A stretch of 63,097 nucleotides of DNA, filler included, from 11 parts of 11 records of this genome joined end to end with filler, not necessarily neighbours in it, one strand, 5' to 3'; positions 184 to 60,721 are shown, counted from the first letter of the whole stretch. Translations and numbers: made by a program. Notes: a model not told the origin generated them from the sequence alone.

Positions 184-3140
184 TTATCTGCCAGAACTTG
201 ATTCAACTAAAATAGAAAATAAAATAATTCATAATCATTGGAATGCATTATTCCTTAAATTATTAATAATAGCATAGCAAGTTTATTAAAACAGTGCATT
301 TATTTATCACGTAATATATTAAACTAGGTTTATCAAAAATAAAGAGACCGAGATTTTCCAAAACCTTAAGTTCCTTCACATGATTGCTATACTCCTCCAA
401 CATGTTATCAAATTCTTTCTTTGTTTTTGTAATAATGGCATATGCAGAATCACCTCTACCACCAGTTTCAGCAGTTGCAGTATATGCATGTCCACCACCA
501 TGACAATATTGGCCAAAATGCTTGTTGGCCCAATTGTCAGCATGACCTTTGTTATTAAAATTTTTATACGTAAAGCTTTGTTGATTGCTTCTTAGAAATT
601 CTGTAACCTGGGGGTGGTTTGGAATAACAGCATTTGGTTGACACCATGAAAACTTTGGTTTACCTATATTAATTATTACATAATTAATAATTATTATAGT
701 TCATAACTTCAAATGCTATTTATAACATTAATATTATTGATGTATTAATTAACTATAGTCAATAATATTCTATATACCTATGTCATTATTTTAAAACACA
801 GAAATACCTATGGCACAAATTTGTCGAAGTTCTTCCAATCTACGCTCATGGACTTGAATACCAAATTGAGTTTCGCCAAAACTTCTATTTTTATCCTGCA
901 AAAATAATTTTGACAACTTTCTAACCAAAAGCTTCTTGTACAAACAGTGATTGATCAAATCATCAGCTATCTTTTTAACTTTTTTGTTTTTACTCAAATT
1001 AAGTGAAAACTTAATCATGAGTAACACCATTTCAATAATATTGCCATCAGCTTTATCATGAATACCATTTTGAAAAAATTGCATAAAAAAGTTGACAACC
1101 AATTCATCAACAGGTACATTCTTTGCAAGTTGTATAAATTCTTTAAAAAATTCAATTCCTTTGGGTGTTGCAGTATGTGGCAGTAAAAAATGAATTTGAT
1201 CCTTGACAACTAACCATCCAAAAGCATTCACGATTTTAGCCAAAGCAACACCAACATTTCCATCAAATAATTGTAAAAACGCTTGATTGTTCATGCAAGC
1301 ATTTAGAAACTTTAAAGCCAAATTACAATCAGCAAAAGCAATGATCAAATGCAAAATTCTAACAATATTAGCAGAAAAATATATCCGTAGATATGGAAAG
1401 TTATTAACCAAATACTCCAACTTTGATTTGGTACTAATATATTCTGTAGAATCCTGGGGTAATTCAGACACCTCTTCAGTTTTAATCTCCAAATATTCGA
1501 TATGATCTGAAATAGTACCTTTACAAGCAAATTTGAGGGTATTTTGAGAAGGCCACATAGCTAATACTGTTGTATAATACCACAATTCGCATGTAGCACC
1601 TTCATTTCCTGTAGGACCAGAACATTCTTGCTTTGCCACTTTACCCCAAAATTCTGAAAATGAATCATCAAAGTCGCAATCAGAAGTAGAACGATTTACA
1701 ACAACCTTTTCCAAGTCAATATTAACATTTTTGCAAAAGTTAGCATTTTTCCCTTGTAAAGTGATCCAATTATCCATCCGGATGGAGGGGGCACCCATAT
1801 CTCCATCAGGCTCAAAACAGCAATCATTCACTTTGCTACCTTCATATCGTCTCTTTCGGTAAGCAGGGTTTTCTCTAGTACAGTCACCATATCGCACAAT
1901 TTCTTTTGTTGCTCTTGCAATGAAAAAATCTAGCCTTTTTTCTGGCGGTAAACTTTCACTTGCATGTTGAAATGCAGATATTATTGCTCTGTCTCGTCCC
2001 TTCAAACCCTTTATTCCATTGCTGGTAAGGGATTGTTCAGTATAACTGTAATCAAAGGCCCACTCTAAAATATCTTGCTCTTTCAGCAGGTTTTCCAATA
2101 ACTGTGGTAGCAAACCTAAATCCTTTTGCCTAAGCTGTTGTGTAGGTACAGCTAACTGATTCCAACATAAGGAATAGATCAAAACCAATCGATATCCAGA
2201 GGTAACTTCAGTAACCTTATGTTTGACATCACCATAGTGAGCTGCATACAAGCACTTGTAAGGAGATATATCTCTACTCATCACATATTCCTTTTCACGA
2301 TTACCTTGATACACAACAAGACTTCCACCTGTAAATACAGAAGGAAGTTGAATGATCAAGGTTCCAAACATTCCCTTTACTTTCTCAGTATCTCTGTGAA
2401 CCTCAAAATGACCACCTTTCTCATAAATTAAGACTTTGTAAAGATTACTGAAAACCACCATATCTTCACAGCCAAGATCCACCTTTATTTGTTGAACCAA
2501 ATTTTCAACACCTTCGTTAAAAGAAGCACTTTGAAGTTTGACCTGTTCAGGCTCCAATTGCCATGTTTTTCGAACATTTTCATCCAAAACTGTTTCTTCA
2601 CCAAGACCATATGGTGATGGCTTACAAAAAGTGATAATATCCTTGAAAGTAGCATCAACAATTGGTAAACTTACAAAACCATATCCATCAATATAAAGTC
2701 CAGGAAATGAGAGTTCAGATGCAATTCCACCAATACTGCTATTGTAATTAACTTTGGTATTTTCAAGTGCCTTGGTGATTTGCTTTTTAATAAGACCTAT
2801 AGCCTGCATATTTACTGCTCAATCTTATGAAATGTCTATACACTTGATTTCTCTAAATCACCAGTAAAAATCAATGAAACACTTTCCAGCAAATCATATC
2901 TTTAATAATAATGATAAATCAAGTTATTAAAAAACCTATTGTTAATAATTCAAACTTAATAATAATAATGGCACCTGCAATCTATCCTCATAATTATAGT
3001 TCTGTGACAGCTTATGGTTATTATATATTGTAATTATTAATAATAATAACGTTAGCAATCTGTTGCAAAGGCTCTGCACTGAAACCCCTTTTGTACCAGG
3101 TTGGTACCAACCTGCAGGTACCATTGCTACAAAGGTTCAT
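184..3140 (-). CDS. 2OG-Fe(II)-dependent dioxygenase-family protein (paralogue 1), multi-exon; main exon about 808-2803, next exon starting at 663; both ends uncertain
   Basis: ORF 791-2809 has the HxD...H...R motifs (GGHFEVHRDTEK, HKVTEVTSGYRLVLIY). A phase-1 GT-AG intron (807-664) continues the frame into GKPKFSWCQPNAVIPNHPQVTEFLRSNQQ, which matches the paralogue C-terminus. Small 5' exons near 2976-3140 and the last exon ending at 184 are tentative. Confidence 0.8.
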
Positions 3141-3536
3141 GGCTACAAGGATTCACCATCGCAGAAACTTCAACAGATTACTTATTATTGTTATTATTAT
3201 TAATTCTTGAAGAATCCTTATTATTATATTGTAATAATATTGCAAAATAATAGTGAAATGCCGAGATTATTATAATTATAATATTGCAAATCTTATTAAA
3301 AATGATAGTGAATTTCAGTAAAATGCTAAAATAAAAAATGAAAAATATGTGCATAGCTGTAAAATATGACATGTCTATTATAAAATCATAAATGTGATTA
3401 AAATATTATAATTATTGTTGATGATATATAGTTATACAATAAGATTGATAACTATTACTATAAAACTTATACTATAAAACTTATGCTATAACAAGGTTGA
3501 CATAATAAGACTGCAGTTATGACTGCACCAGTTACA

Positions 3537-6028: not shown

Positions 6029-6128
6029 NNNNNNNNNNNNNNNNNNNNNNNNNNNNNNNNNNNNNNNNNNNNTTAATTAATTAANNNNNNNNNNNNNNNN
6101 NNNNNNNNNNNNNNNNNNNNNNNNNNNN
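6029..6128. other. Artificial contig linker (N44-TTAATTAATTAA-N44)
   Basis: Identical 100-nt spacer, with stops in all six frames, also at 14923-15022, 19484-19583, 22068-22167, 28846-28945, 38444-38543, 40621-40720, 48718-48817, 55861-55960 and 59987-60086. Confidence 0.98.
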
Positions 6129-9407: not shown

Positions 9408-12400
9408 TTATTTCATTCTTGACTTAACATCACTGCATATAGGGCAAGAAACCTCTTCACTTGCGACATACTCAGAAAAAAAAGAATCTGCTCTATCATG
9501 ATCACTAAAATACACCCTTAAACATTGATCATGAAGGGCATGCTTGCATCCAAACACATAAAATGGGGTATCATCGTGGGCATTTATGGAAGAATGGCAG
9601 GAAGAGCACTCTTCGTCAGCACTAATGAAAGCAGCACATGAATTCTGACATTTCAGCATTCGTTCAAACAGATGTGTTTGGTCATTATCAAGAATCTTTT
9701 TACAATCCTCAATTATGGACAATTGTGACCTATGTTCTTGTAAAATTCGGATCAAAGCTGATTTCAAGCCTGGAATTACCATCTTTTTGGGAATGGCGGA
9801 AATGAGTTTTATGGGTTCAATCTTTAAACCAGGAGTGTGGAGGAGGATGTGCAGAAATTCCGCAGATTTTACACTGTATTCTAGGAGATCACTCCATAAC
9901 TCATCATCATCTTCATGATTTTGACAAAATTCAATGGCAATTTTAATATCTTTCTGCTCTTTCAAAATAATTTCTAATGCAAACTTTGCATTACCCATTT
10001 TATCCGCCAAAAATACCTTTCCTTCTGTTATGCTTCTTTGTTTGCAGATATCATACGCCTTTTCCATGTTATAATCTGAAGCAGTTTTTACGAACTGTAG
10101 CAAAAACTTCTTATTAAATTCAGCAGCTAGTTCGACGATTGTGTTTTGGTGTATACTAATTTGTTCCTTCATTTCTGGATAACTTTTCCAAATGAGGATA
10201 AAATACCTTAGCAACAACTGCTTATTTCTTTGAATTTGTGGTATAACGATTCTAGGCTCAAATTCTTTATGTGAGCAGAAAAGATTAAGAGCTCGACCTT
10301 CATCAACATGAACCAATTGGTTACAAAGACCATTTCTGACTATGGTATATAAATTGTACTTTTCAATGAGGTCGAAAACGCCCGAATGTTTGACATCTAA
10401 ATAGTGTTTTAAGGCTTCATCGTATTTAGACATTCTTGCATAAAGTTCAGCCATGCACTGCTTAAGCTGGCAATTTTCTTCAGCGCCTTTATGAATGTAT
10501 AATTTTTGACGTAGCGTTTCGGCAATTATTTGAACATCGTATATGTTCTTAGGCCATGTTTTAACCAATTGCACAAATATTTCATAGCGTTTTTGCTTCA
10601 AAAAGTAATCCAAAATGTATTCGTATAAACTTTTGTCAAATACGCATGGTGGTGATGTTGGAATGTACTTGTACAGGTTCTAAAATGCTCATCACATGAT
10701 CAAAAGATTAGATATTTTACTAAATAGTAGGAAAAGCTTGCCTCGAGTTGCTTATTATTTATGAAGGTCACAATGGAGCTCTTCCAAATCTTCTGACTAT
10801 TTTCACTTTGTATTCCTATAGCATGAACCAGCAAATCAGCAGCTTTTTCAAAATTAAATTCCTTTTTACATAAATGTTGAATGTATGTCAGGACAATCCC
10901 CTAAAAATCCCCACACTTAAGTACGTTAAACGAACGGGTCAGGCTTTGAAAGTCTGTTATACGATTTAATAATCTAAGATCGTATTCAAAGCTTTAATAG
11001 ATTTAAATTTTAAAATTTAAGTTTTAACTTGAATTTTAAAATTGAAAATTTTGATGGGTAATATTGAGATTTAAAATGTTAAAATTAATATTTAGTTGAT
11101 CAAGTAGTGAAGATGAAAACATACATCGACGGTAAACTCTCTCAAAGTTTTCTCATACTTCCTAGCAAATTCCAAGGCCTCATCAAATCTGACATTTTCA
11201 ATCAACCAAGCAACCCGTTCATCATTGTTCCTTAATCTGGATCCGATTAGAACTCTTGGCGTAACAATAAATCTAATCAATTCACTTTTCAGATATTCCA
11301 ACCTGAGATCGTTTGGATTTACGTAGATCGGAATATTTTCATCTTCCATTGGTGGCTTCAAGACGTTCAATGGAATGACATTATTAACTATTTCATCATA
11401 TTTTATCCCATGGGTAAACTTTATCAGTCTAACATGAACACTCCAATCTTGATTTCCTCTAGGCGATTTTCTGATGTTACTATAATCATCAATTCTAAAA
11501 TTCTCTTCACCATCCTCTGGAGTAGTAACCAAAATAAAACTACCGCTCATTGGTCCCATGCTACAGATAAAAAAGGGTAAAGTACTACTTCCTATTCTGT
11601 ATCCAGCCTTCTTTGGGGAACCATCAGATGCACCCCTCTCTGAAACTGTATAATCTGTATTAGCAGTGCCACCCTGTTCTCTATCTCTTATCTCAAAATT
11701 CTAAAAATAACCTTCATAATTACCAATAATAATAATAATTAGTAGTGACTAATAATCATTATTATATTAATAAAAATAGCAATAACAATAATTATTAAAA
11801 ACTATGCTTTATTAACCTCAATGGAATTAGCCCAGCCAATGGAAAACTTCTCAGAACTTTGCCATAAAATGGTTGCTCGAAATAAATCAGCTCTGAAGGT
11901 ATGACTTTTTCGATGCTTGAAGAATACTTCCCTGGCATTTATATCATATACAATTACATAATTATCATTTGCCCAAGCAATGTAATTGTTATGCCAAGTT
12001 ATGCTTCTGATAAAACCTTCACCTTCATGTAGGACATGTTGCTTCCAACGACGAAACAACATTTCTTCAAATAAAATCAGTTTTTCTCCACCACAGACAT
12101 ATTTTCTATCTTTCTGGAAGTTTGGTGCCAATGCAACACTCTTAACTGGCCGGTCCAAGCTATGCTTACGAAAAACATGATGGTCAATACGTGGTAGATC
12201 GTGAATTAAAACCGTTCCATCATCAGAACAAGAAATGGCAAAATCTTCCATAGAATCAACAGCAATGCTATTTACAGTGATGTTGTGGCCTTCAAGCTTC
12301 AAATGGGTAACGTTTCCTAGGTGTTTCAAAGATAAAGGATCAAAATACTTATAATTCTCTTACTTTATAAAGTAACTTACAAAATTTCTTACCTTCATGA

Positions 12401-12540
12401 TCCAGCACATGAAGTGTACCTGTGTGTGTGCCTAAAATCAAAAATTTGTCTGTTGCAGCTAAGCAACTAGCTGATTCATATTTCAGAACGTCAGCAGCTT
12501 TTTCTAAAGTGTAAAATCGCAAAACGGGTTCCTCTTCCAT
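9408..12540 (-). CDS. VPS41: Vacuolar protein sorting 41 (HOPS subunit), 5 exons
   Basis: N-terminal EEPVLRF, LGTHTGTLHVLDHEGN and WD-like repeats (SCSDDGTV, HEGEGFI), clathrin-like repeat (AIEFCQNHEDDDELWSDL) and C-terminal RING-H2 (CSSC...FGCKHALHDQC...CPIC). Exons join in frame. Confidence 0.93.
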
Positions 12541-12754
12541 TCTTTCCTTTCGAACGTAGATCTACTATGGATTAGTTAGAAAATGATCTATAGCTCTAAA
12601 ATTTGTACAAAAATACTTCATTATATTGTACAATAAAGTTTTTAAATTAAAAAATTTAATTAATGCTTAAAAACTTACAATTAATAAAAGGCTTAAAAGT
12701 TATAATTATGATATTAAACAGATATATACTTGGTCTATACAGCATATACTTATA

Positions 12755-14770
12755 TCAAAAATGATTGCTTTTAACGATGTTCCAAACTTGGCTGGCTAAA
12801 CCATGCATGCTAAGCCATACATCCTCATTAAATTTGGTAAAAAACGCTCTGCCATCAGCATCTTCTAGCAGCTCAAACACAACGAATAATTCATAACAGT
12901 GCCCGAATGCTCCCATTGCTTTCACATTGTTTCGATAAGCTGTCAGCGAAGATACAGTGGAAGTACAAGTATTACTTGAGCTACTAATCTTCTTTTTTGG
13001 TAAAGTTAAATCCATGACTCGATATCCTCGGTCATCTTCGACCCATATTTCATAGGCAAAAACAGTTCTACCAAAGCGCTTCATAACTCTTTGCCATTCA
13101 TGATCACCAAAGAGTTTTATGCAGGTACCCACAAATTCTGAAAATTTGTTGCAAATATTACCGGCTAAACTCGCTGGAGAAGGTGTGTAGCAAAAATCGT
13201 TATTTCTATCGATATACAGAAGGTGGGCAAGTTTTAAGTAAGAACTCAAAAAGGGTTTGCTTCTATGAAAATTTTCAGGAACAATAGCGCCAAGGGTAAG
13301 ATTTCTTTGGCACTTCACAAAAATATAATCAATAACATCATCTAAAACAGGACGAATGCTTGCAATTATTCGGTTCCAGTATGCTTCAGAAGTTAATGGT
13401 TTAACACTGTACACATTTCGAAGTACTTTTAGTAATTTGACTCGTAACTGGTATAAGAGGAAGACGTTTTTTGGTTTCGATATTTCTGGTGACAAATCTT
13501 CACAGATACTACGTATAATATTATTTTCATTATCGGACATCCTGACATTTTGTAAAATCATCTTTGCATTAAAACGAATTTTTTCAATAACTAGCTTACT
13601 TTTCGTTTCATCTAACTGTTCATCTTCGTTGTAAGTCTCAAAATACTCAAAAAAATCTCGTAAATACCAGATGCATTTTTCAAATCGGTGAGGTTGCACA
13701 ATGCAAACTGAAACGCCCTCGTAAAGCGGTAGAATTGAGACATGAAAAGGAGTCAAAAGTTCTGTTAGATTTCCACTCAAAAATATAGTCAAATGCCTCT
13801 TTGCATTTCGAAACAAAACATCTGTATCTGTAGATTCTATGTAATTATACACGGTATCGGTATAACTACGTGAGCGTTTTCCAGATATACTTGGTGGTAT
13901 TGGAGATTCTGAAGCTGCTGAATAAAAGTCTTCAGAATCTTCAGAGTCTTCATTGCCACTATTATCAAAAACATCTTCATCTAATACACACTCTCTTCTG
14001 GAGAATACCAAATGTAGAAGAAATAGCTTTCTAACATCATTTGGAGATAGATTTCCAGTACCATGTAGTAACTGTTCTTTGGTAAAAATATAAATAGCAC
14101 TAACATCTTTGTCGTGGATGTACTGTGAAATATCACGAATCAAAAGTTCCATAACCGTTTTGACTTGACTGCTAACCAAAAGAGGTTCAATGCATCGCAG
14201 CTTTAATAAACGAATATCACTACTATTACTGCAAAAGTTTTCATCTTCATTATCGTTGTTGTTGTTGTTGTTCTTATTATTCTTCTTTTTAGAAGTGATA
14301 TTGCAAAGTTCTTCACAAATTTTTGCAAGTAGCAGTTTTGTTTCGATATTTCCATTAACCAAACAAGTCTCAACACAAAAACCAAACACGTTTGAGCAAA
14401 ATAGGCATTTAATCATATTCATAAACTCAAGACAAAGGAAATCAAAGTCTTTAGGTACTAAAAAAATAACTAAATATGATTGTCCAATATAATGGAAGAA
14501 AAATGATCCTTCTTCCCCCAAAGAAACTTCTTCATACGGCATTTTCATGGCGTCCTTCATAAAAATATTAGATAGATATAACGTTGAAAATAACTGACTA
14601 ACAATATCTCTACAAAGCCTTTTTTCCAAATTACGGGACTTCGGACATTGTTCACCTTTGGTCAGTAATAATTCGTTCTCCATCGCAGATTTTCGTAATA
14701 AAGTGTCAGCATTTTCATCAACAAAATAAAAATGTAGTGTACATTCCCGAAATATGAATACACCAAACAT
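12755..14770 (-). CDS. HPS1: Hermansky-Pudlak syndrome 1 protein homologue (BLOC-3 subunit), single exon
   Basis: 671-aa ORF with HPS1-like segments DYIFVKCQRNLTL, LAHLLYIDR, YEIWVEDDRG and CYELF in the expected order; N-terminal longin-like start. Confidence 0.75.
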   Translation of the reverse strand: MFGVFIFRECTLHFYFVDENADTLLRKSAMENELLLTKGEQCPKSRNLEKRLCRDIVSQLFSTLYLSNIFMKDAMKMPYEEVSLGEEGSFFFHYIGQSYLVIFLVPKDFDFLCLEFMNMIKCLFCSNVFGFCVETCLVNGNIETKLLLAKICEELCNITSKKKNNKNNNNNNDNEDENFCSNSSDIRLLKLRCIEPLLVSSQVKTVMELLIRDISQYIHDKDVSAIYIFTKEQLLHGTGNLSPNDVRKLFLLHLVFSRRECVLDEDVFDNSGNEDSEDSEDFYSAASESPIPPSISGKRSRSYTDTVYNYIESTDTDVLFRNAKRHLTIFLSGNLTELLTPFHVSILPLYEGVSVCIVQPHRFEKCIWYLRDFFEYFETYNEDEQLDETKSKLVIEKIRFNAKMILQNVRMSDNENNIIRSICEDLSPEISKPKNVFLLYQLRVKLLKVLRNVYSVKPLTSEAYWNRIIASIRPVLDDVIDYIFVKCQRNLTLGAIVPENFHRSKPFLSSYLKLAHLLYIDRNNDFCYTPSPASLAGNICNKFSEFVGTCIKLFGDHEWQRVMKRFGRTVFAYEIWVEDDRGYRVMDLTLPKKKISSSSNTCTSTVSSLTAYRNNVKAMGAFGHCYELFVVFELLEDADGRAFFTKFNEDVWLSMHGLASQVWNIVKSNHF

Positions 14771-15180
14771 TATAAAGAAAAATAAGGAAAATGGCTTTGT
14801 AGTTTAGGAACTTTGTATAATTTTTGTTTGACTCAGTCAACTTGACTTATTAAGCCATTTAGGTAATTTTCGTTTCTTCAAAACTTTTTCCTATTGTAAA
14901 AAATAATGTATACAGTACATAGNNNNNNNNNNNNNNNNNNNNNNNNNNNNNNNNNNNNNNNNNNNNTTAATTAATTAANNNNNNNNNNNNNNNNNNNNNN
15001 NNNNNNNNNNNNNNNNNNNNNNTTATATATGTAATAATTATTATTCATATTTATAAAATATATTTAATAATTATAATTACTTTAACTATACATGTATAAT
15101 ATACTCTTACAGATATACTAAATGAAGTTAAAATTTGAAATTTAAATTTCAAAATTTAAATTTTAAATTTAAAGACAAAC

Positions 15181-18100
15181 TTCTTTTCCATTAACAATTA
15201 TAGTAGATGGTGAAATGACAAAATCTACTGCTTTCCATTTGTCGGTAGGTGCAGCTTCAATTATTTTATCAATTGCGGCATGCAAAATCGAAATACCTAA
15301 ATTATGCAAGAGGCGTAAAGAACATCATAAAAGAAGTATTGACAAATGAAGATGTAGTACCCGTAGGTTTTGGCACAACAACTCGACCCACATAAAAGGA
15401 ACCAACAACACGTCTCTTGGGTTCTTCCATTGGAGTTGGAAAACATGATGACACTACAATAATTCCGTAATTATAATATAGCACTCTCAGTTCTTTTTTG
15501 CATGTTAGTAGTGTTCAAAAAAACTTTCTCATTACTATTATTAATAATAATGCCCAGTGATGTTTGCGCGCTCGTACTAACAAATAATTCAACGATAATA
15601 CCCAAAGGAGTTGAAGAAATCGAACTCTGGTTCCTTACAGGAAGGCTTTTGGGTCTGTTACTGCAAAAAAAAACACATTAAAACTTATTATTACTATTAA
15701 TAATTAATAATAAGCTGGAGAATCTGTAATTATTAATACGGATTACCTAAGTCTATTGAAGTGATTTGAATAGGGATAGTGCTCAAAGGAATCTCTTTGG
15801 TGCTGCTGTCTTCTGATAATGGCTCGTTCGCACTTTTCCTTCAAAATTTTGGCAATATATTTTGCTGGGCCATCACATCGAAAAACATGACAGAGATACT
15901 TTCCACTTCCCAAATCACGCGAAACATATGCAAAATCACTACAATGAGTCAGTAACTCAATTATCATACATTTATTACTTATGAAGAGACTAACGACGAA
16001 TAATTGGTAATAATAATAACATTCATGCTAACAAACAAGACATTTTGTCCTTACCGTTCTCTACATGTGATGAAAAGCAGCAGAAAAATACAGGTGTTAT
16101 TAATCAGCAATTATCATTATTATTAATAATTAATAACTTTTACTAATAATAAGTATGCTACCTGCCATTATCTCGACCAACACCCCAGACTTTAATTTCA
16201 CTGATAATCTGGTCGTGCAAAGTCACAAGGTTTTGGGGATCTATCAAGCGCAAATTACTATCGTCAATCTCTATGACTAAATCCTTGCCCTACGCATTGA
16301 TAATTAATAAAGTATTGCTTTATTATTAATAATAACAAGAAAGATATGCAAATCCTCACCTGACCCCATTGGGCAATATTGTCTAGGGTTACATCCTTCT
16401 TACTGGATAATTCCACAATGCAATTATTTACGGCCTTACTGCTTACTTCAGGAGTTGACAACTCTTTTCCTGGGATTTCAACCCAACCATGTGATTGGAC
16501 AGTATAGCGATTGACCTTCTTTAATTTAGCACTACAAATTAATAAAGCATAGTTCTGAGTCAGAACTTCTGACTCGGGAGGAATTGATTAGCAAGCAATT
16601 AATTTCTTACTGATCTTCAAAGGAAACCGTTTTCTTCATAGAATTATGACTTTCTTCAGGAACACTGAAGACTGATGTTAAATTACTTTTTCTTCCTTTA
16701 CTCTTCTCTTCCTGAATGTTGCAAATGATAAAAATGAATGTTTACTATTATCGCATTTATTCAATATTAATAACAATATATTGCTCATAGACGTTATGTA
16801 AACGTTATGTTTATTAATCAATAATCACTTAATAATAAGAAATGATAAGATTCATATTACATTGAACGAACATTTAATAAGGAAATTCCAAAAGCACTAA
16901 CTAGAAAATCCACGCTGTGGGATCTGGAAGGTCGATTATTATTGTCACAGCCGACAACTACGTCTGGTGGTTCTCTTTGTATAGTTCCGGAAGGCAAATG
17001 CCAAAAATACGGACCTTCTTCATCTTCACACCTTTTCCAACCAGCAGTCTGCATTGCTGAGCTTTCAGAAATGCCTGAATCATTTGACACTCCACTCGGA
17101 GAAGTAACTCTGAAATATACACTGTTCTAATGAAGCAAATAGAAACTGTACATACAACCATAGAAACTTAACGATATTTGAGTGCCTCTTGAGGCATAGG
17201 AATTCTCAAAGGTTAATACCGACTGCATAGCATTATAGATGGTCAATACTGACTAACAAGCTAACTAGTAGCAGATATTGATGTAATACACGATAATATC
17301 CTTTATTAAGCTGGACTCTTTCAATTCATTACTACCACAATCATTATAATGTACGACATGATATATAGATAGTACATTGTATCTACTAGAATACAACAAC
17401 GATTTACAACATAAGTGGTCTAGAAACTTGTAGATGGGCTTGCTGGAAGGCATTGTGCCTAACAGCCCAAAAGTTAATTCGATTATAGCAGCCACAAATG
17501 TGGTGAAGACAAATGCTTATTATAAATTGATTTTCGCAAATCTCTTGGTAAGTCCTTGAAAATGAGTCACACGTGGTGAGTCATAGAAATTGGACTGACT
17601 TGTGAGTATGAACAAATTACTTACCCTGGGTAGGCTAAATTTTAATTAAAATAGGCTATTTTAGTACTGTACATGGTGCGCTGTAGTAAAAGCATGTTCA
17701 TTGTCTATATGTAATAAAAGACATCTTACAACAATATCTGTTCTAACTGAGAAAAGAGAGAGTCATCAACTTCTTGATCTTGTACATAATTTTCTCCATA
17801 AGAACAAGATGTCATTAAATCGTCTTCTTCCCATGCATCGTCGTCGTCGATTGGATCTGAAATGTGGTAGTAACTTACTAGTAAGTATGTTACGCCTGAA
17901 CTCATAATTTGGTACGTAATAACATGATACAATACGTTATTATTATAGCAATTACCCCGTTCAATGGAATCTTCAGACAGTGAAGAACAGTTGTCAAAGT
18001 CACTATGTTCGTTATCAGAAGTACTTAGTAGACAACCTTCACCATTATTTTTAGTAGGCCCATTTATGACAGTGTTCACTATAGTTTCTCGAAAAGCATC

Positions 18101-18298
18101 TTCAATGATGGTAGAGCTGTCTTCGTCATTTTCAACATTACTGTCGATTACAGTAAGAATTTGTTCATCCTGGCACTTTTTCAATCCCATGTCGTTTAAA
18201 CTTAGTTTAGCATATCCTTTCCTACGACTTTTAGGCACGGTATTGCAGCAAACATCTGCTTCACAGTTTGGGGAGTTTTTCGAATTTTCATGTTCCAT
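15181..18298 (-). CDS. APBB: APBB/FE65-family adaptor (WW-PTB1-PTB2), multi-exon, 3' end truncated by contig end
   Basis: WW domain AGWKRCEDEEGPYFWHLPSGTIQREPP; PTB1 SSKAVNNCI, IKVWGVGRDNG and DFAYVSRD..KYLCHVFRCD; PTB2 start FPTPMEEPK..YVGRVVVPKPTG. Assignment of the 17726-18298 ORF as the first exon is less certain. Confidence 0.88.
16055..16060 (-). CDS. APBB: 6-nt microexon (AGAACG) of the APBB gene
   Basis: Minus strand reads TTTTTCTGCTGCTTTTCATCACATGTAG|AGAACG|GTAAGG, between phase-2 exon boundaries at 16162 and 15938. Inclusion gives GRDNG-RER-DFAY. Confidence 0.85.
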
Positions 18299-19679
18299 GC
18301 TTATAAGTAACTATCAATTACATACAGTCGATGAACTCATAAATACATAAGATCATAACTTTAGGAACGTCTTCCCATTCACTTATAGGTATCTCAAATA
18401 ACAAACAACAGCGTGAACAAAACAACAAGACATTGTCAAACGTCAGAGATACTGAAACAACAAAAACTTTGTAGGTACCATGTAATTTCACATACCTACA
18501 TAGTACAGTATGTAGGTGTGTGTACCTACCCATGTACATTCATGTAGGTAATGTACAAAAGCTTAGTAACAAAATACAGCATAGCTATGTACCTAGGTAC
18601 CGTATGTACATTCATGTACATTTCGAATGAGTGTGACAGAGTCATGTATTGTACTGTCATGTCATGTACTCATTGAGTCGTGTATGTACTGTACAAAAGC
18701 ACAGCCTGTGCTGCACAGGTACTCTTGGAATGCAATAATTGGATACTTACCCACGTTTTTAGTTCGGCTAAAAAGGCATACTTAAGAGCCACCTAAGCTT
18801 TATTAGTAATTATTAGTAATAATTATTAGTAATAATTTATTACCGCCATAATTAATACGGTGGTCGTAACAATAAGCATGACGCGTTAAACCACGACCGT
18901 ATTAACTGGATACGTTAAACGCTATTAAACGGTATTATTGAAAAATTGACAAGATACATATCTACTGTACCATGTACATGACATGTACTACATGTGTACA
19001 ATGTACACTGTACGTGTAGGTATGTACATTGACAGATGCATATGTACCTAATGCCACAACGTTTATTACTTATAGGTACGTAATACTTATCGTAATAGGT
19101 AACATGTTGCAATTGTAATTCCATATTGTACAAGCACTTACATAGCGTAAGAGTACTTATAATATAAGTCTTATATACAATATATCATATTTTTTTACTA
19201 ATATGATATAATGATCTCTTTAATCTAGAATAATAAGTTTGATTAATTAACTTAATACAAAGATATTCTTTTGATATATTAATACTATTATTATAATCTT
19301 TATTAATGTATTTTTCTAATTAGCAAATAACAATTTTTTTTGAATTAATAAAAAACATTGTATTTATTAGTATATAATAATATATAGTATTTAAATTAAA
19401 TATTGTACTATATATGATTAGACTATATATTTTATATTTGTTATATGTAATGTAGCGTGTACCGACATCTGATCGCATGACATNNNNNNNNNNNNNNNNN
19501 NNNNNNNNNNNNNNNNNNNNNNNNNNNTTAATTAATTAANNNNNNNNNNNNNNNNNNNNNNNNNNNNNNNNNNNNNNNNNNNNCGGGTGTTACACTTGGA
19601 AAGGTTTCCTTGTAAGCCATTATTAACTTATATTGGTTATGAGTTATTATTAATTGGCTATTAATTAATAACAAATTAG

Positions 19680-21226: not shown

Positions 21227-22454
21227 GTAAGTATAAATACTTCTCTATTTATTAGGCTATTACTCAATTAACAATAATTTGCTTCTATTATTATAATAAT
21301 ATATTATTAACAATGAAACTGATATAATAATAAAACTAGTATACGATATTATTATAATAATAATATTAAATTTTCAGTATAGTTTCATTATAAAAACTAG
21401 GTAAATATTCGAAATTATTATTACTAATGGTAAGTGTTTCGTTTAATTATAACTATGCTGACTGTCAGGTAACAAGGTACAGTACGCTGTATAATAAGGT
21501 TTCCATTGAAATCATTTTCAAGATCTTCATCAATTTACTGCATTGCTCTTGCAATGTAACGATGTTGTTACTATAGTATATTATTGGTGGTGGTACTTTA
21601 TTAATAATAACTACACTTTGTTATTATTAATTAATCATTAATAATGATAACAATAAGCAATTAACAAACCCCAATAAATGTAATGAATGAAGTGTTGCTA
21701 CGAAGTCCTTGTCTCTCTTTATTATCACAAATTTTGCTTGCACCTGAGGAAACTAAATTCCAGTGGTAGAATAATATGCCGTATTAAATACCTGTTGGTA
21801 TTTTTGGCATAGTCGTTTTGCTCATTATTGTTGTGTGTGACATGATTTATAACAGGGTTTTATAATATGATCTATTGTGATTGCTGAAAGGAATTCCAAC
21901 CTACTCACTTACTAATCCGTTCGCAATACCTAGGTAAGCACATTGGAATCATTGTTATGATGCAGTTTAGGCGGTCGCAAATTGACACTGCCGCTACCAA
22001 CAACAACACACAAAGTATAGTAGTTCGAACTAAAGATCTTTATCATTATTAATAATAATAATAATAANNNNNNNNNNNNNNNNNNNNNNNNNNNNNNNNN
22101 NNNNNNNNNNNTTAATTAATTAANNNNNNNNNNNNNNNNNNNNNNNNNNNNNNNNNNNNNNNNNNNNTAATATGCATATTATAATACATGTAATATCTAA
22201 CGGCTAATGTAGCAAAAATATTTATAATAAACCATTTTAAATTCGTCCAATCTTGTGACCTCGGCTTTTATTCTGATCGGCTAATAGGCGCGGAAATACG
22301 GCATGTATGTAGATGTAGGTACGTTACGTAAGATACATACTACAGTAGCTATAGCGGTGTTTGAAACGCGTGTTACACCACTGGTTTAGTGTAATTTACC
22401 CATATCAAATTTTGCATTTGTTACCTATTAATAATAAAAATTACAAATATTTAG

Positions 22455-24877
<2,423 letters not shown>

Positions 24878-28797: not shown

Positions 28798-30094
28798 GTA
28801 ATTATTTTATATTATTAATCATTTATCATAAATATATTTTAATATNNNNNNNNNNNNNNNNNNNNNNNNNNNNNNNNNNNNNNNNNNNNTTAATTAATTA
28901 ANNNNNNNNNNNNNNNNNNNNNNNNNNNNNNNNNNNNNNNNNNNNAATCCGTACTTCGTGCAGAATGTGCTAATACCGCCAATTCACCCATACTTTACCT
29001 ACTATACTGTGTAATGATTACACAGTAATCCTATTATGCATGGTAAATGCTTCATATCATATCTTACAATTTAATCTGAGGTTTTATTAAAACATCTGTT
29101 GCACCTTTACAACACTACCATAATAAGTTGATAAAAATGCCGTAGGTAAGATGAGAGACCAATGTTGGGTAAATATGCACAGAAGTAGTGAACATCTAAA
29201 GGTCAGATGCTGCTACTCTTTTTACACATATGATCAAATACGGCCGTTTTCTGATATTTCCAAACGGCGGCAAAAATTTGTTTCTTATTTGTAACCTTCA
29301 ACAGATGTCGTCGAACGGCGGTAAAATTATATGTACCATTTTTTGATATATCACCAATGGACGGACACTCACTTACCTACCAGACATTAACTTAATTAAT
29401 TTGGTACTACCAAATTGGTACCTAGGCTTTTAAGAAGCTTTCAGAAAATAATTAATTTATTTGATGGATGTAAGTTCATGCTTAGATAAATTTTGAGGTG
29501 CATGCTTGCTTTGCACGTGCTGTTTTCTGATAACCAAAAAAGACATGATATTCATATGTTTATTATTATGTCTTGCTGCCTGTATATAACAAGCATTTAT
29601 ATGTTTCGCAGAACATTTTATTCAACCTTCTTGACATCAACTGCAGTCTGCAGATGGTTGATGAAATGAGATTTATGAAGATATTTCTTTATTAAGATTA
29701 TAACTAAAAAGGGGTTTTTTGTTTGAAGATAATTTAATAGTATTTTTCAAATTGCTAGGATTAATATTGACAATATTATATTGTTTGAATTATTACAGGG
29801 GCTTTGGGTTTTCAGTTTCAATTATTCGTGGGAAATTTTTCAGGCGTTAATTAACTTAATTAACAGGACAAATCCATTTTAGTGGTGTCTGAAAATGACT
29901 CTTAATCTTACTAATTATTAAAAATCCCTCGATAAAAGGAAAGGAAAGCTTTTAAAAGGTTTGTCAAAACGTATTAGTGTCTAATTGTGTGATTATTACT
30001 TGTGTAACATCATCACCATAAATATAACCGTCCGCGGTTTGGCAATATCTCCAAATGGCGAGCTCATTGCCAAATGACACATGGGTGATGTTTA

Positions 30095-37034: not shown

Positions 37035-39013
37035 ATAATACGGACACCTATTTGAAGTTTCAAGTTAGACCATGTGACGTATCATACGTACCATACGATA
37101 TCATACCGTATGGTACACCAGTAGTTCCCTCAATTATGTATATATATATATGTAGTGATAGTGTATCTTTAATAAGCTTAACCTTCAAGGTTGTATATAG
37201 TACATGCATAAACAATATATTCTATAACTAACATACCGCGATACATTATTTGACGTACAGTACCGTACTACGTCGTACCTTGTAGTGCAAGGTTGTACAT
37301 ATGTAGTACGACGGTCGTACACTGTACACTGTATGAGTACCTACATGTAGTACATGTCATGTACATACATAAATAGGCATTGTAACTTTGTTTTAATTGC
37401 ACACATATTTTGTTCTTTTTCAGCATAGGTAATGTATATTTTTCCAGTATTTTTTCTATCATGTTTTTTTCTGTTACAGATTAGCAGCTTTTGTCTACTA
37501 TGTACTCTACCAGTTGTACAATATTATTAACCTACTACTACTCTAATATGGCATAGACCATAATGGAGGTATACGGTAGTGCAGTACAGTGTGAGTTTGA
37601 ATGAAATTCATACAGTATACTTAAGCATGTACGAAAATATGTTCAACCGTTGAACTTCAACGATAATGATTTCTAATAACAATTGTGGCAAACTGACATG
37701 AATTTTTTTATCTCATTCTATTGTCATGTAATACAGTAGTACATAGTATAGTATACTAAGTATACGTAAATTACTACAATTACTGTAATAATGTACGTAC
37801 TATTGAATATGTAGACTACATAATGTAGTACATATGAAACGATCATAATACCTTTAATAATTATTAATTTATAATCATACTCAAGCTATAGCATAGGTAT
37901 TTATGTTTTGAATAATAAAGGACTTTGTTAGTAACACCATGTATCTAAAAAGTCTAAAGGCTTATGACTTATTTTGTGAGTTATGATGACAAAAGTTCCC
38001 ATGCTAAATTATAACCCAATTGCACAATATACAGTACAAAAATGAATGTTCAACTTTAATCTATTATAACTAATAAGTCAAATATGTATTATTAATAATA
38101 TAGATTAGTAAGTTTGACTAAAAATAAGGATTTGGATCATAACCCATGGCTTTTAACATATATATATTCAATACATTATATTCCTACAATTTATGCTTAA
38201 CCTGATGCAAAAAATGCACTTGGAAATTCCAAGTTGGAATACACTATGTCATAATTTTAACAACTTTTGAAAAAATGTTATTACAAATTTTATTTTCAAT
38301 TAAAATTTTTAATATAAGCTAATTTTTATAGATTTTATTATGATAGGATAATATATTCTAAAATGTAAGCAAAATTAATAAAGTATGTACAGTAAAATGA
38401 AACCCACTTAACATTATCACTTTTATGATCATTTTTTGCTTAANNNNNNNNNNNNNNNNNNNNNNNNNNNNNNNNNNNNNNNNNNNNTTAATTAATTAAN
38501 NNNNNNNNNNNNNNNNNNNNNNNNNNNNNNNNNNNNNNNNNNNTATTATTCATATGCTGGCCTTTATTAGTTGGCAATTTGCCAATTTGCAACAGATGTG
38601 GAACTGCAGACTTGACTCTGTTTGAAACGTCTCAAATGATTCATTTGAAATGAATTTGGTACGTACTTATTTTAAGTCTTCTACAATCAGCTTTGGTAGA
38701 TGCAAGTACCAAAGTATTTGCTTTGGTGTCATATTATTCATTCATCAGGCCTAGTTGTGTTGCAATAAGAATGTAGGTGGTTGCTTCATAAGACGTGAAC
38801 CAAATATTGATCAATGGCACGCTTTTATTCGTCATCAATTGACGTAGTAGGAATAAGCTAGTAGGAATAAATTGGTTTTACGTTCAAGTTGGCAAAATTC
38901 CAAAATATCCCAATTTCATTGATGGACGTCAAAATACGCACTTTTTAGACTTTAGTACAAGTACACAATACTTTTGCAATTGTTTTTATACCTTGTAAGT
39001 TTCGCAAATTTAG

Positions 39014-40559: not shown

Positions 40560-40978
40560 GTATTCAAATTATTAATAGCATTGATCTGATGCAATTTTTA
40601 ATAATAAGTAACAAGCTATTNNNNNNNNNNNNNNNNNNNNNNNNNNNNNNNNNNNNNNNNNNNNTTAATTAATTAANNNNNNNNNNNNNNNNNNNNNNNN
40701 NNNNNNNNNNNNNNNNNNNNTTTTATTGACGATTTTATCTTTGAAATTGATGCTTCTTTCTTCAAAATTATATTGATCATTTTATCATTGATCTTATGAT
40801 GATATTATGAAGATTAAACTAATAATACAGTATTAGGAGTCGACTTAATTATTATAAATGATAATACAAATAGAATAACAATCATGTTACTTTATTATTA
40901 ATAATTAAAAATATTTTAAAGTAGATGGTTGCATGGTATGAATAAAAGTGAACAATATTATAAGAAACAAGAAACAAT

Positions 40979-46013: not shown

Positions 46014-48092
46014 TTACTTTGGCCACGATTGGTCAAGTACATTCCTATCAAAATTGAATTGTTCTCGATGACACTGCATAAAAGGCTGAGCTGTTAAAAT
46101 TGCCCATAACTCGGAAGAAAAACCAGGTGCCATTGGACTTATCATTACAATAAATTCCAACAAATATTGGTGCAATAATTTACTATGAGTTAAACTTTCC
46201 TTGCTAACTATCTTCTTGTTTCTGAAAGTCTGAAGATATCCTTGCAAAACGCGAATATTTGTATTTAATAAATGTGTTTTTTCGTAATAGGACGTAACAG
46301 ATTGCAAAGTAGTGTTACGCTTTTTCGTCAAAAAAGATTCGCATTTCTGCAATTCTTCAATATTTGGCAAGGACACACTTTTGCAATCTAGATCGATCAA
46401 CGTAGTTACCAAATTCCAAGTTCTTGACATAAATCTTTTCATACTAATGAATTCTAAAGTTGAAACAATAAATGAATGGTAATGAAATACAATATACCCA
46501 TACAGAGTCTGTAACAGACCTCTTTCGTTCCATTTTCTTGGATATTTAGGCGCAACGTCAGCCAACATACATAACCTTGTGACATCAACACCAAATTTAT
46601 TCATGATTTCTCCAGGGTCAACACCATTCTTCTTCGATTTGCTCATTTTATCCCAATAAACCTCAACATGTTCTTTTGTAGAAATTTCAACAAATTCTCC
46701 ATTCTCTTTTTCAAAAACCTCTGAAGAAATTAAAAATTTGCCACTGTGCTTGGTTTTATATGTTTTCCCCAAAATCATTCCTTGTACCATCAATCTGGTA
46801 AAAGGCTCAACACAATTAGCCATACCAATTTTATGCAAAAAATGATTGATAAACCTGGCATAAAAAAGGTGCATAATTGCATGTTCTTTGCCTCCAACAT
46901 ACAAATCAACTGGCATCAAATGGTTAGCTTTGTCCGAATCAAAAGCCATTTCTTTATTGTGAGCATCACAATATCTTAAAAAGTACCACGAGGAATCAAC
47001 AAATGTATCCATTGTATCTTGCTCTAAAGATGTTTTAGAACTTCCACATTTGGGGCATTCTTCCGCTGATGAGGAATGATTTATGGGTAATCTTGCATAT
47101 GGAATCGGTTGTGGACCACAAGAGCTGCAATGAACTATTGGGATTGGTGTTCCCCAAGTTCTTTGGCGAGAGATTAACCAATCTCTCAATGATTTTCCAG
47201 AATAACAAGCAATAACATTTTTTTCTCTTAATTTCTCCATTAAGTTATTAGAAACACCATTTCCAGAAATTTTTGGAAATTTTAAATTTTTCGCCACATG
47301 TAAGTTTAACAGATCATTTCCAGAACAAAGCTCGCCTTCTGAGTTCTCAAAAATATTAGACTGGACCACAATTGGCCAACTGATAGCTGGACGTAAAGGA
47401 TTATTTACACTAGCTTTTAACCGCTTAACTAAAAATTATTAATAACAATGTTTTGCACTAAATATTTATTAATACAAATATCATTACATATGTATCAAAT
47501 TGAACTATTGTAAATTACAATTTGTAATAGAGAAATTATCTATTATATTTAGCATCATAATAACTCGAGTGATCATGAGGTTGACATACTTCTGACTTTC
47601 TGTGGTTCTTCATCTTCTTTAGCCGTAACTTCAATTTCCATTTCTTCACTTCTAAATTTTCCTGTAATTAAATTACGTCATTTTCACCGTGTCTTACATT
47701 AATTCTTGTATATCTAGGAAGTGTTTTTCAGGAACAGCAACATGAGTTATATGGTTAAACTGTTGTTCATTTTCTAAGAATAAATATAACATATTTGGAG
47801 CACCAGAATTGTCTAACAAACATTTTCCTGCCTCATCATAAACATGGTATTGAAGCTCCAACTTTAATCCTAAGGTGTGACCAATCCAATTTCTCTGCAT
47901 TTGTTTTACTTCATTGCTAAAGTTTTTTAGGCCTTTTAAATTTTCTTGCAAATCCTTGGCAAGAGCTGTGGTTCTGACAAACCATTGTTTTAACCATTTT
48001 TTCTCAACTTTGGCACCAGATCTCCAAGAACAGCCACTTAGATCAATCTGCTCATCTGCTAGGACAGTTTTGTCAACTGGATCCCAATTTAC
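46014..48092 (-). CDS. LARS2: Mitochondrial leucyl-tRNA synthetase, 5' end truncated
   Basis: VNWDPVDKTVLADEQID..GCSWRSGAKVEK, MQRNWIG, LRDWLISRQR.WGTPIP, DTMDTFVDSSWYFLRY, GGKEHA, KMSKSKKNGVDP. Confidence 0.93.
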
Positions 48093-50084
48093 CTAAATTT
48101 AATAATACTTAACTCAAAGTAAACTTCAGTTTAATCAAAAATTAATTACTATTAAAATTGTATTCATTAAAAATAATAGGTACTTATTTAATGAATGCAT
48201 CATTATGATTAAATTATAGTACATGATTTAATTATGTATAATTAGTGTGCATGATTTGTATGGTAATCATCATTATTAATAATAATGTTTATTATTAATC
48301 AGTATGTATTATAAATTGTAATACAATATATTACAAATCAAAAATTTTGATTCAACATTCATAAATTTTTCTTTCAAGGATTTTCATTTACAAATTATGC
48401 AAAAATTAAATTCCTGAAAATTGAAAGAAAAGATTGTTTATTGTTAGTGAAAGTTTATCTGAAGTGCTTTGTTGCATTGAAAGATTAAATTTTTGAAAAT
48501 AGCAACAACAGATTGTTTATTGTTAGTAAAACTTTAGTTGAACTGCTTTATTCCATTGTTATTGCTATTTTGGTATAAAATAGGCATGTTGCATGTTGGT
48601 GGTGATTAGTGCACAAAATGAAAATGAAAGCAACATTCGTTTTAGTTTTATTACTAGTTGTCTTTTCTGTTATGAACACTACTTTAGTAATCAATATAAT
48701 ATGGTTGACTTTAGTAANNNNNNNNNNNNNNNNNNNNNNNNNNNNNNNNNNNNNNNNNNNNTTAATTAATTAANNNNNNNNNNNNNNNNNNNNNNNNNNN
48801 NNNNNNNNNNNNNNNNNGTGTATCACTTGGTGAGGTTTCCTTGTAAGAAGTCCTTACCAAAACTTTATGACTGTTCTACTAAGAACAGTGTTCTTTAGCG
48901 CCATCCATAGTGCTGTCACGATTGAATAAAATCTTTATTGAAAAATATTTATTAACATACATATATATTAAAATTAATATATAATTAATTTTAGGATATA
49001 TTATGTATTACTGAATTAGTAATACTAATGCAGCTTTTTGCATAACAATGTATTCAAAATATTAAATGTATTAATAATTATGAATTATTCACGTAAATAT
49101 TCTATTTATATAGTTTTACATTAATTTTATGGTAATTTAATATTTGTTTATTAAGATTGATATTAATAATGTTAATAAAAAAATACAGTAATAATATATT
49201 AAATTATGATTTATAATAGACGTATTCATTGAATATGTAATATGAATCTGCAGGTATTACTAATAGTAGTGCAATTATCATTTACTTTGCTGAGTAATTA
49301 GTAAAATGTTTAAGACCTTAATGTTATTTGATAGTAGTTATAATAGAAACCTCAGGACATTGATTAAATGACCTGGTTATTTTATTTTATCTACCATAAT
49401 AATTATAGCTAGATTTAGGGATTTTGCCCTCAGATTTCACTACTAAAAATAAAGAATAAATATATCACAATTATGCTTTACGACAATGTTACACCTTTAT
49501 TGCTATTCTCAGATTGTTGCTAAATCTAAAATAATGAATTGATAGGATAGAAAGGGGTAAAAGTTTATGCTGATCCTATTGAACCCCTCTGTATCATTAA
49601 ACAATAAAATTTTACCATTTTTCTCGATGCTAATTGCAAACGAAGTTAATAGCAGATCGGCTTTAATACAATAATATGACCCCCTAATAAAAAGATGTCG
49701 TCACTAATTGCAACATAGACATAGTAATTGCAATGAAATGTTATTACTAGTGATGGTAAAAATAATATTGCCCATGTTTATAGTGAGTATTGAAGAGCTA
49801 TCCATCGCCTATCCATCCATCCATATTGCAATAACAATGCTATATAATTATTATTATTAATGTTGGAACCACAATATGCAATATATGATGGATATCATTA
49901 TAAGCATGCCCATGCATTCTTTGTTATTACTATTATTAATGCAATAATCATAATCATAATTCCGCTTTATGCCTGGCTACTGGCCTTGTTACCTGTTCAA
50001 GTTGATTTTTTCTATTATTTGATGTACGATTATACTAGCTGAACAAATATTATATCTAAGCTTGCTTTCTTTCATTTTCTAAGG

Positions 50085-55770: not shown

Positions 55771-56226
55771 CGGTCAATTGCAGAAAAACCATCATCCAGA
55801 TTAGCAATCGTACTGAACACATTGTGAAACGTCATTATTATTATTATTATTATTATTATTNNNNNNNNNNNNNNNNNNNNNNNNNNNNNNNNNNNNNNNN
55901 NNNNTTAATTAATTAANNNNNNNNNNNNNNNNNNNNNNNNNNNNNNNNNNNNNNNNNNNNGAAATCCCATGAAGTATACAGTAATTATTATACCGTATAT
56001 GCAAAATATTGTAGTAGGTATGCAACTAATGATGCCCAATAAAGTTTTTAACAAAATGGCATATTTATGAAGGTTTCATTTTGAATATAGTAAGAAAAAT
56101 AATTAATATTTTTTAGTGCTACAATTGTTAATAATATTATTATGCAATCTCAGCGTTAGTAGAGCAAAAATCAACTTCAAAAACAAAATAGCAGCACCAG
56201 GATTGCCAGGATTCGTCTAAATCGTA

Positions 56227-59435: not shown

Positions 59436-60721
59436 TTAGTACATAAAATGTGCATAAAAATAGCGTTCATATTATTCTTCAATTATTTCTTTGCAAAAAA
59501 CGCAAACTATTGTGGGTGAGGATAATCTAAGTTACTTCGCAGCTGCCGAGTGCAGTTGAAAGTAACTTATTAATAATAGAAACATGAACTCATTTCAAAA
59601 TTAAGTTACATAAACTAATTATATTATAATTTAATTAATTTATATATAACTTCATAGCTTGCATGACCATTTGGGGCAGAATTTCATTGCTATAAAAGTG
59701 TTAATCAAGGTTGAAAACATTTCTAATTAATCAATTCAATGATTGAGTTTCAATCCCAGTTCAATGACATTATGTTACTGTTACTTGAGAAGGAAACATA
59801 ATTCTTTAATAACAATTTTTATAGTAACCATAGTTTCCTTTTAATATGCACACTCGGTCATTTTTCATATGTAATATTATTAACAATAATAATACAGTAA
59901 TAACTCTGCTGTACATAATAATATTATTATTAAAATTAATAATATATACAACAAAAAATTACTAAATAACAACATGTCGAACGTTTNNNNNNNNNNNNNN
60001 NNNNNNNNNNNNNNNNNNNNNNNNNNNNNNTTAATTAATTAANNNNNNNNNNNNNNNNNNNNNNNNNNNNNNNNNNNNNNNNNNNNCCTTAACAACACTT
60101 TGTGCATAATAAAAACGTCTTAAGTGCAGGAAAACATGGCTAATTAGTAATTATTCTATAAAAATTACATTCAATAGTAGTTTTACAACTACTAATACTT
60201 GTACTTTTACTTATATTTTGTTTATCCTTAATAAATAATATTTATAAATATATGGTTTAATTATTAAACTTTAATTGCCATTTAATTAATTGATATATTA
60301 TAATAAAGGGTTTTAAATTCAAAGAAACAAACTTACATTTACATACTAACGAAATAGTGTGAACTATATAATTAATGATATTGTGAACTTTATAATAATA
60401 ATAATGTACAATGTGCAATTTTATAATTAATAGCAATATTATGTACAATAAAATATCCTTGAAAGGGAACTTTTTATTAAAATAAAAACAAGTGTTAAAT
60501 ACATTTTTAAGAGTCTTAAAATAGCATCGTTGTACGAATAATATTCATATTGTATAATATACAATGTATATGAAGTTAAAGTTTTTAAATTTTAACTCAA
60601 AATGATATAACTTTATTCATTTAAAGCAACATTATTTACTTCTACACTGTAGCTAGTAGCTACCATCACCAACTAAGCAAGATAACTTTTAGCAACTAAC
60701 TATAACTCACATTAACAGTTT

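Follow-up and report, generated by a model that had tools for sequence, protein, structure and literature searches.

Does the Fe65/APBB homologue encoded in the DNA analyzed here retain the six-nucleotide (6-nt) microexon that vertebrate APBB genes carry in their first PTB domain (PTB1), and how might such an exon be used in this organism? The whole stretch of DNA, hereafter termed the window, spans 63,097 nt, filler included, and consists of 11 contigs chained by ten 100-nt spacers of identical sequence, each built of N44, a 12-nt linker with stops in six frames and again N44. The element in question is the hexamer AGAACG at 16060..16055 on the minus strand, which lies within an intron of the PTB1 coding region and which an earlier note on this DNA had proposed to be the counterpart of the vertebrate microexon. 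Judging from its position, frame, coding capacity and flanking signals, the hexamer is very probably an orthologue of the ancient 6-nt Fe65/APBB microexon, an explanation that the DNA makes far more likely than a chance resemblance.

A candidate six-nucleotide exon between GRDNG and DFAY

The reverse complement of positions 16050..16092 reads gtatttttctgctgcttttcatcacatgtag/AGAACG/gtaag, where slashes, here and below, mark exon borders, and it forms part of a 223-nt interval that separates PTB1 exon b, ending in GRDNG, from PTB1 exon c, which opens with DFAY. The upstream exon (…GTC TGG GGT GTT GGT CGA GAT AAT GGC AG) ends at 16162 and is followed by a donor GT at 16161-16160. The first sub-intron, of 101 nt, closes with tgtatttttctgctgcttttcatcacatgtAG (acceptor AG at 16062-16061), and beyond the hexamer (16055..16060, minus strand) the downstream acceptor …cattgtAG at 15940-15939 leads into the next exon, which starts at 15938 as T GAT TTT GCA TAT. 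Combined with the split codons on either side, the hexamer, enclosed in the sole AG-N6-GT of the intron, encodes Arg-Glu-Arg (RER): inclusion yields AG/A GAA CG/T and the peptide GRDNG-RER-DFAY, skipping yields AG/T and GRDNG-S-DFAY, and the frame is kept in both cases. Reverse complementation and translation confirmed in sequence, coordinates and both frames what the earlier note had described, namely an in-frame 6-nt AGAACG with splice sites in a PTB1 intron.

These properties are those of the APBB microexon, which is likewise six nt long, preserves the frame, encodes Arg-Glu-Arg and resides in an intron interrupting the codon that lies between GRD-x-G and DFAY. That vertebrate APBB1 has a 6-nt exon at this position, as had also been claimed, is borne out by the crystal chain of the human APBB1 PTB1 domain, 3d8d_A, which carries the insertion (GRDSGRERDFAY). 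The likeness to mini-exon 9 of vertebrate APBB1 and to its APBB2 counterpart comprises the PTB1 site between GRD(S/N)G and DFAY, the length of 6 nt, the split-codon phase and the RER product. Unlike the vertebrate genes, in which skipping produces GRDNG-R-DFAY, the present locus would produce Ser upon skipping, its microexon ending in CG and its next exon starting with T; furthermore, neural use is documented in vertebrates and no more than a possibility here.

Plain AG-N6-GT arrangements are common, with 316 instances in the window and a presence in 46% of shuffled introns. When the interior of the intron was shuffled by mononucleotide 200,000 times, however, an RER-type site arose in only 20 cases (1 in 10,000), and the pattern AG[AG]GA[AG]CGGT occurs once in the 63-kb window when both strands (126 kb) are considered. 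A chance origin of the hexamer was rejected on account of these shuffles and of the lack of a second such site in the window. Taken with the identical codon position, the identical peptide and the intact splice signals, the shuffling result upholds the proposed orthology to the vertebrate APBB microexon.

Splice signals and the UGC motif

An acceptor and a donor directly flank the hexamer, as read against the splice consensus and not with a species-specific splice model. The upstream sub-intron (16061..16161, minus strand, 101 nt) begins with GTAGCA and contains a 76-nt AG-free stretch ahead of the acceptor, with candidate branch sites CTGAT, TTAAT and TTCAT located, respectively, 43, 39 and 10 nt from the 3' splice site. 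Within it, a pyrimidine-rich tract (16063..16090, minus strand; 22 pyrimidines in 30 nt) holds the sequence TGCTGC, the two TGC motifs of which (16082-16080 and 16079-16077) lie at -22 and -19 of the microexon acceptor. Of the gene's acceptors, six were read; this one has the richest pyrimidine tract and alone carries two TGC, and the microexon donor, GTAAGG (16049..16054, minus strand), is the nearest to consensus among the six donors read. The downstream sub-intron (15939..16054, minus strand, 116 nt) carries a branch-like TACTGAC motif followed by the cattgtAG acceptor. The other introns of the gene measure 64, 70 and 86 nt, a range to which sub-introns of 101 and 116 nt can be compared, the unsplit interval being 223 nt long.

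Two studies of eMIC targets describe UGC near the 3' splice site, a long AG-exclusion zone, a long pyrimidine tract and a strong 5' splice site (PMC8797185; bioRxiv 10.1101/2024.09.17.613571). The splice signals read here fit a used exon, and they fit these published descriptions as well: as a possible target of eMIC-type Srrm234 and SRRM3/4 proteins, the candidate exon would have UGC placed between the AG and a distal branch point, together with a long pyrimidine tract, a long AG-free zone and a strong donor. The earlier note had taken the UGC motifs to be a cis-code for that programme. There are indeed two TGC upstream of the acceptor, but 6.2% of the 6306 AG sites of the window, and 8.4% of its 440 pyrimidine-rich ones, also have two or more TGC in the preceding 30 nt; of the other five acceptors in the gene, four have a single TGC and one has none. 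Since the motif count lies within this 6-8% background, the UGC footprint carries little weight, and the UGC element alone is weak evidence for the eMIC programme.

The host gene and its contig

The contig that bears the hexamer extends over 15023..19483 (~4.5 kb), the spacer at 14923..15022 forming its 3' limit with respect to the gene and that at 19484..19583 its other end. Searches with Fe65/APBB proteins using tblastn mapped a WW-like segment, three PTB1 exons and the first half of the second PTB domain (PTB2) to 17045..15181 on the minus strand. A HMMER search with the 63-residue downstream exon retrieved 181 library proteins with E <= 0.001, of which the named ones are Fe65/APBB proteins, and the closest library protein is only 55-56% identical to the host gene. 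These sequence comparisons support the identification of the host gene as an Fe65/APBB homologue.

Three exons, all on the minus strand, make up the PTB1 region. Exon a (16360..16531; AKLKKVNRYTVQSHGWVEIPGKELSTPEVSSKAVNNCIVEL…WGQ), delimited by tblastn matches and splice reading, is followed by a 70-nt intron; exon b (16162..16289; GKDLVIEIDD…KVWGVGRDNG, with the split codon AG at its end) is 53-60% identical to Fe65 homologues; and exon c (15747..15938; (T)DFAYVSRDLGSGKYLCHVFRCDGPAKYIAK…), likewise matched by Fe65/APBB proteins, ends at a GTAATC donor. The WGVGRD…DFAYV core of a first PTB/PID domain is present, with PF00640 (PID) matching the downstream exon c over profile positions 95-139 at 28.1 bits (cut-off 20.9) and, more weakly, exon b over positions 52-89 (E = 0.0025, below the cut-off). 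Profile positions 90-94 remain unmatched at the junction of exons b and c, and it is in this short gap that the hexamer falls.

Towards the 5' end of the gene, a WW-like region (AGWKRCEDEEGPYFWHLPSGTIQREPP; 16965..17045, minus strand, borders not fixed) shows 63-70% tblastn identity to the Fe65 WW region of a spider and of Priapulus; no match to the Pfam WW family was obtained in this region at E <= 0.01. An open reading frame of 194 amino acids (aa) located 5' of it (17729..18310, minus strand), acidic and poorly conserved, matched no Pfam family and gave a weak match (KSRRKGYAKLSLNDMGL) to the N-terminus of a chiton Fe65; this frame is a probable N-terminal coding exon. At the other end, the N-terminal half of PTB2 (FPTPMEEPK…APSTIIV) was assigned by tblastn and splice reading to two exons, 15453..15361 and 15296..15181 on the minus strand, with an intron of 64 nt between them. 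The sequence …STIIVNGKE closes the last exon that can be read, either at a weak GTTTGT donor or three codons further on at a stop (15023-15181, minus strand). The C-terminal half of PTB2 is absent from the whole window, because the Fe65 contig ends at 15023. Between PTB1 and PTB2, a candidate linker exon at ~15660-15602 (minus strand) presents the acceptor ttttttttgcag and the sequence SNRPKSLP…, which resembles the RPT(S/D)L motif found in other members of the Fe65 family; the donor of this exon is ambiguous, with lengths of 35, 59, 83 nt and more keeping the frame, so that there are many solutions and none is preferred. The opposite strand of the contig contains only short open reading frames. 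A scan of the contig with Rfam returned three sub-threshold matches to unrelated microRNA models, all at a single hairpin (18956-19045, both strands; 25-27 bits against gathering thresholds of 60-75) that is probably a simple palindrome.

Distribution of the insertion among homologues

The composition of the junction was analyzed in the best 150 of the 181 proteins with E <= 0.001. Of these, 58 span the GRDNG/DFAY junction, 84 contain DFAY without the upstream exon, being mostly short open frames that enter from the intron, and 8 lack the motif. Ten of the 58 junction-spanning proteins have RER and 20 have RDNGR, the rest showing other short variants. The named records discussed below are database protein models identified by exact sequence.

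In the spider Parasteatoda tepidariorum, a 602-aa record has RER and two records, of 600 and 614 aa, have R; both records of the horseshoe crab Limulus polyphemus have RER; and the 14 junction-spanning records of the crab Scylla paramamosain are divided into 6 with RER and 8 with R. The present gene resembles these arthropod Fe65 isoforms, in which GRDNG-RER-DFAY is found alongside GRDNG-R-DFAY, and its PTB1 exons are 51-60% identical to theirs. It differs from them in that their skipped form keeps Arg and in that the organism of the window is neither an insect nor placed close to any of the three. Single records of Priapulus, Trichinella, Caenorhabditis bovis, Hypsibius and Liolophura lack the insertion and end in R, and the same absence is seen in 4/4 junction-spanning records of Nematostella and in 4/4 of Hydractinia. 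The record of the ostracod Notodromas monacha (P0003) reads GRDNG-RSQQKMWLVNIRG-DFAY at ~residues 512-525, which looks like a gene-predictor read-through of the same intron and not like a real insertion.

A scan of metagenomes contributed two further Fe65 loci, neither of them close (48% and 36% identity). The first (L001) is intron-less and transcript-like. The second (L002, ~nt 2893-3480 of its contig) is cnidarian-like and reads …MRVWGFGKEDQ(R)/DFAYVSRD, a junction of the Nematostella type (KEDQR). It has an intron of the same position and phase as the microexon-bearing one, and none of the 6 AG-N6-GT in that intron is an RER-type site. Across the sequences compared, the presence of RER in deuterostomes and protostomes and its absence in cnidarians is the pattern that a bilaterian origin of the insertion would predict.

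The Arg preceding DFAY deserves separate attention. Of the 58 homologues that span the junction, 49 have Arg at this position and one (P0105) has Ser. Ser before DFAY is also present in three fragment records, and the two that were inspected (P0058 and P0121) enter DFAY from intron sequence; since these fragments run into DFAY with Ser, a T- or C-initial exon is not unique to the present gene. In vertebrates and arthropods both the included and the skipped form retain Arg before DFAY. In the present gene, with CG at the end of the microexon and T at the start of the following exon, the Arg is kept upon inclusion only.

Several points weigh against the identification of the hexamer as a functional orthologous microexon. 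The gene is incomplete on its 4.5-kb contig, and an intact, expressed gene is consequently an assumption. The donor of the upstream sub-intron, GTAGCA, is weak. The microexon itself also contains a second AG (AG/AG AACG), the use of which would create a 4-nt exon that breaks the frame. Finally, the arthropod isoforms compared with it are, as noted, database models.

Other contigs and the lineage of the host

The spacers that chain the contigs lie at 6029-6128, 14923-15022, 19484-19583, 22068-22167, 28846-28945, 38444-38543, 40621-40720, 48718-48817, 55861-55960 and 59987-60086, and gene order across them is artificial because of this chaining. For the same reason, the other loci of the window say nothing on linkage to the Fe65 gene, including the VPS41-like, leucyl-tRNA synthetase (LeuRS), kinesin and mir-29 loci. 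The VPS41-like gene (9408-12561, minus strand) was recognized by a protein-family features search over 9411-10679 only, and a 682-aa open reading frame (12755-14803, minus strand) corresponds to no Pfam family.

Some of these loci bear on the identity of the host. A hairpin of the mir-29 family on another contig (51524-51605, plus strand), with the mature-like arm tagcaccatgtgaaatcagtgc, scores 46.9 bits against an Rfam gathering threshold of 46.7; mir-29 is not known from outside the bilaterians, and the hairpin suggests that the organism is a bilaterian. A mitochondrial-type LeuRS gene with large exons (46014-48092, minus strand) is 36-43% identical to its best animal matches, and in a quick tree, built with 25 of 120 listed matches, with no deuterostome or outgroup and with a careful search unfinished, the window sequence sits on a very long branch that falls outside an insect clade with 99% support. 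A kinesin-13/KIF2A-like gene (22355-24407, plus strand) was identified by KIF2A exon matches; the KIF2A exon is ~50-54% identical overall and 60-72% identical over the start of the motor, values that are about the same for molluscs, a centipede, cestodes and vertebrates. A flatworm affinity drawn from local identities was discarded, as it was gone when the same region was compared. By these sequence comparisons, the host is a long-branch lineage.

How the exon may be used

If the hexamer is the orthologous microexon, it would be spliced into at least some mRNAs, and splicing would then take out the 223-nt interval in two pieces, of 101 and 116 nt, intron sizes typical for the gene. The Glu-Arg insertion would sit in a loop of PTB1, where, by analogy with the mouse, it may tune the binding of partners such as Kat5/Tip60. 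Reviews report that inclusion of the 6-nt exon strengthens Kat5/Tip60 binding (PMC8911335) and that FE65 isoforms without mini-exon 9 (E462, R463) are mainly non-neuronal (PMC8304848), and neuron-specific use and SRRM4 dependence of the vertebrate APBB microexon are documented in these and other sources.

Within the identification of the hexamer as an orthologous microexon, one can postulate that the exon is alternative and neuron-enriched, which would need an eMIC-domain Srrm2/3/4 protein recruited at the TGCTGC between branch point and AG. We regard this as quite possible, though short of probable. The layout of an eMIC target described above (TGC at -22/-19, a 76-nt AG-free zone, 22/30 pyrimidines and the GTAAGG donor) agrees with it, as do the spider and crab annotations, which hold both forms together, and the neural-specific inclusion reported for this exon orthogroup across bilaterians in a recent study (bioRxiv 10.64898/2026.09.05.749416). 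The ordinary frequency of paired TGC motifs in the window argues in the opposite direction, and so does the expected product of skipping, Ser in a position where most homologues have Arg. No Srrm was found among the ten large open reading frames of the window that were scanned. Moreover, nematodes reportedly have no eMIC and rely on PRP-40/RBM-25 (bioRxiv 10.64898/2026.09.14.751627), and the organism analyzed here is a long-branch lineage. In Caenorhabditis elegans these factors, which are linked to the U1 small nuclear ribonucleoprotein, are described in the same source as activating microexons without eMIC, by an action on the 5' splice site. At the present locus it is the microexon that has the strongest donor of the gene, and the PRP-40/RBM-25 route would be a candidate only; the Caenorhabditis bovis record shows R alone.

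The microexon might instead be constitutive in this lineage, always included by intron definition through its strong flanking signals, with the Ser form unmade or amounting to noise, a reading that we consider possible if on balance doubtful. It draws on the fact that Arg before DFAY is retained by inclusion alone (CG/T versus AG/T), unlike in vertebrates and arthropods, on the best acceptor tract and the best donor of the gene flanking the microexon, and on the sizes of the sub-introns, which fit the 64-116 nt range of the gene, whereas 223 nt does not. Because skipping alone loses a near-invariant Arg, the inclusion form appears to be constrained and the exon may be constitutive. The evidence from other lineages points elsewhere: the exon is alternative in every named lineage for which both records were seen, tissue-specific inclusion is reported in the RNA-seq study already cited (bioRxiv 10.64898/2026.09.05.749416), and at least one homologue (P0105) tolerates Ser here, the three fragment records also having Ser.

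That the hexamer is unused, either as a decaying relic of the ancestral microexon or as a chance AG-N6-GT in an AT-rich intron, is very improbable. In favour of this reading are the position of the gene on a short and incomplete contig, part of a fragmented assembly, and the abundance of bare AG-N6-GT sites; against it, an RER-coding site is rare in shuffles and unique in 126 kb, the CG dinucleotide, infrequent at 32% G+C, is exactly the one needed for Arg with a T-initial exon, and all splice signals are intact and above the average of the gene.

If the hexamer is the orthologous microexon, its included form is probably the one under selection, since the CG end and the T start together keep the Arg. 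We further suggest, tentatively and with less than even confidence, that the CG/T change altered what had been an on/off neural switch, turning it either into an obligatory 6-nt exon or into a switch between Ser and Arg-Glu-Arg.

Implications for the Fe65/APBB family

The earlier note had also expected this locus to extend or date the neural microexon programme, an expectation that does not survive comparison with existing records and literature. RER and R forms of chelicerates and a crab are already annotated, and bilaterian ancestry is already in print: in tissue RNA-seq from 20 named bilaterians, posted as a preprint in September 2026, only two neural-specific exons could be traced to the bilaterian ancestor, the 6-nt exon of APBB1/2/3 and a 9-nt exon of MADD (bioRxiv 10.64898/2026.09.05.749416). 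The hexamer fits this ancestral APBB orthogroup in position, size and peptide; that study relied on RNA-seq, the present analysis on DNA. Of the eMIC exons of fly and mouse, very few are common to both, with 4 at the same position (PMC8797185). The locus hence adds one lineage to those with a microexon already known to be ancient, without dating it anew, and raises no new question on the origin of the microexon programme; what is unusual in it is the Ser/Arg-Glu-Arg arrangement.

For annotation, the locus is of practical value in that automated gene prediction will overlook the exon and yield a PTB1 domain containing Ser. If the proposed switch between Ser and Arg-Glu-Arg is true, it would alter the chemistry of the PTB1 loop more strongly than does the Arg/Arg-Glu-Arg alternation of vertebrates and arthropods. 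With the CG/T arrangement one can also ask in a simple way whether the alternative state, or the inserted form alone, is what has been conserved, and each further lineage that retains the hexamer with intact splice signals strengthens the argument that the two-residue insertion in PTB1 has been selected for more than half a billion years.

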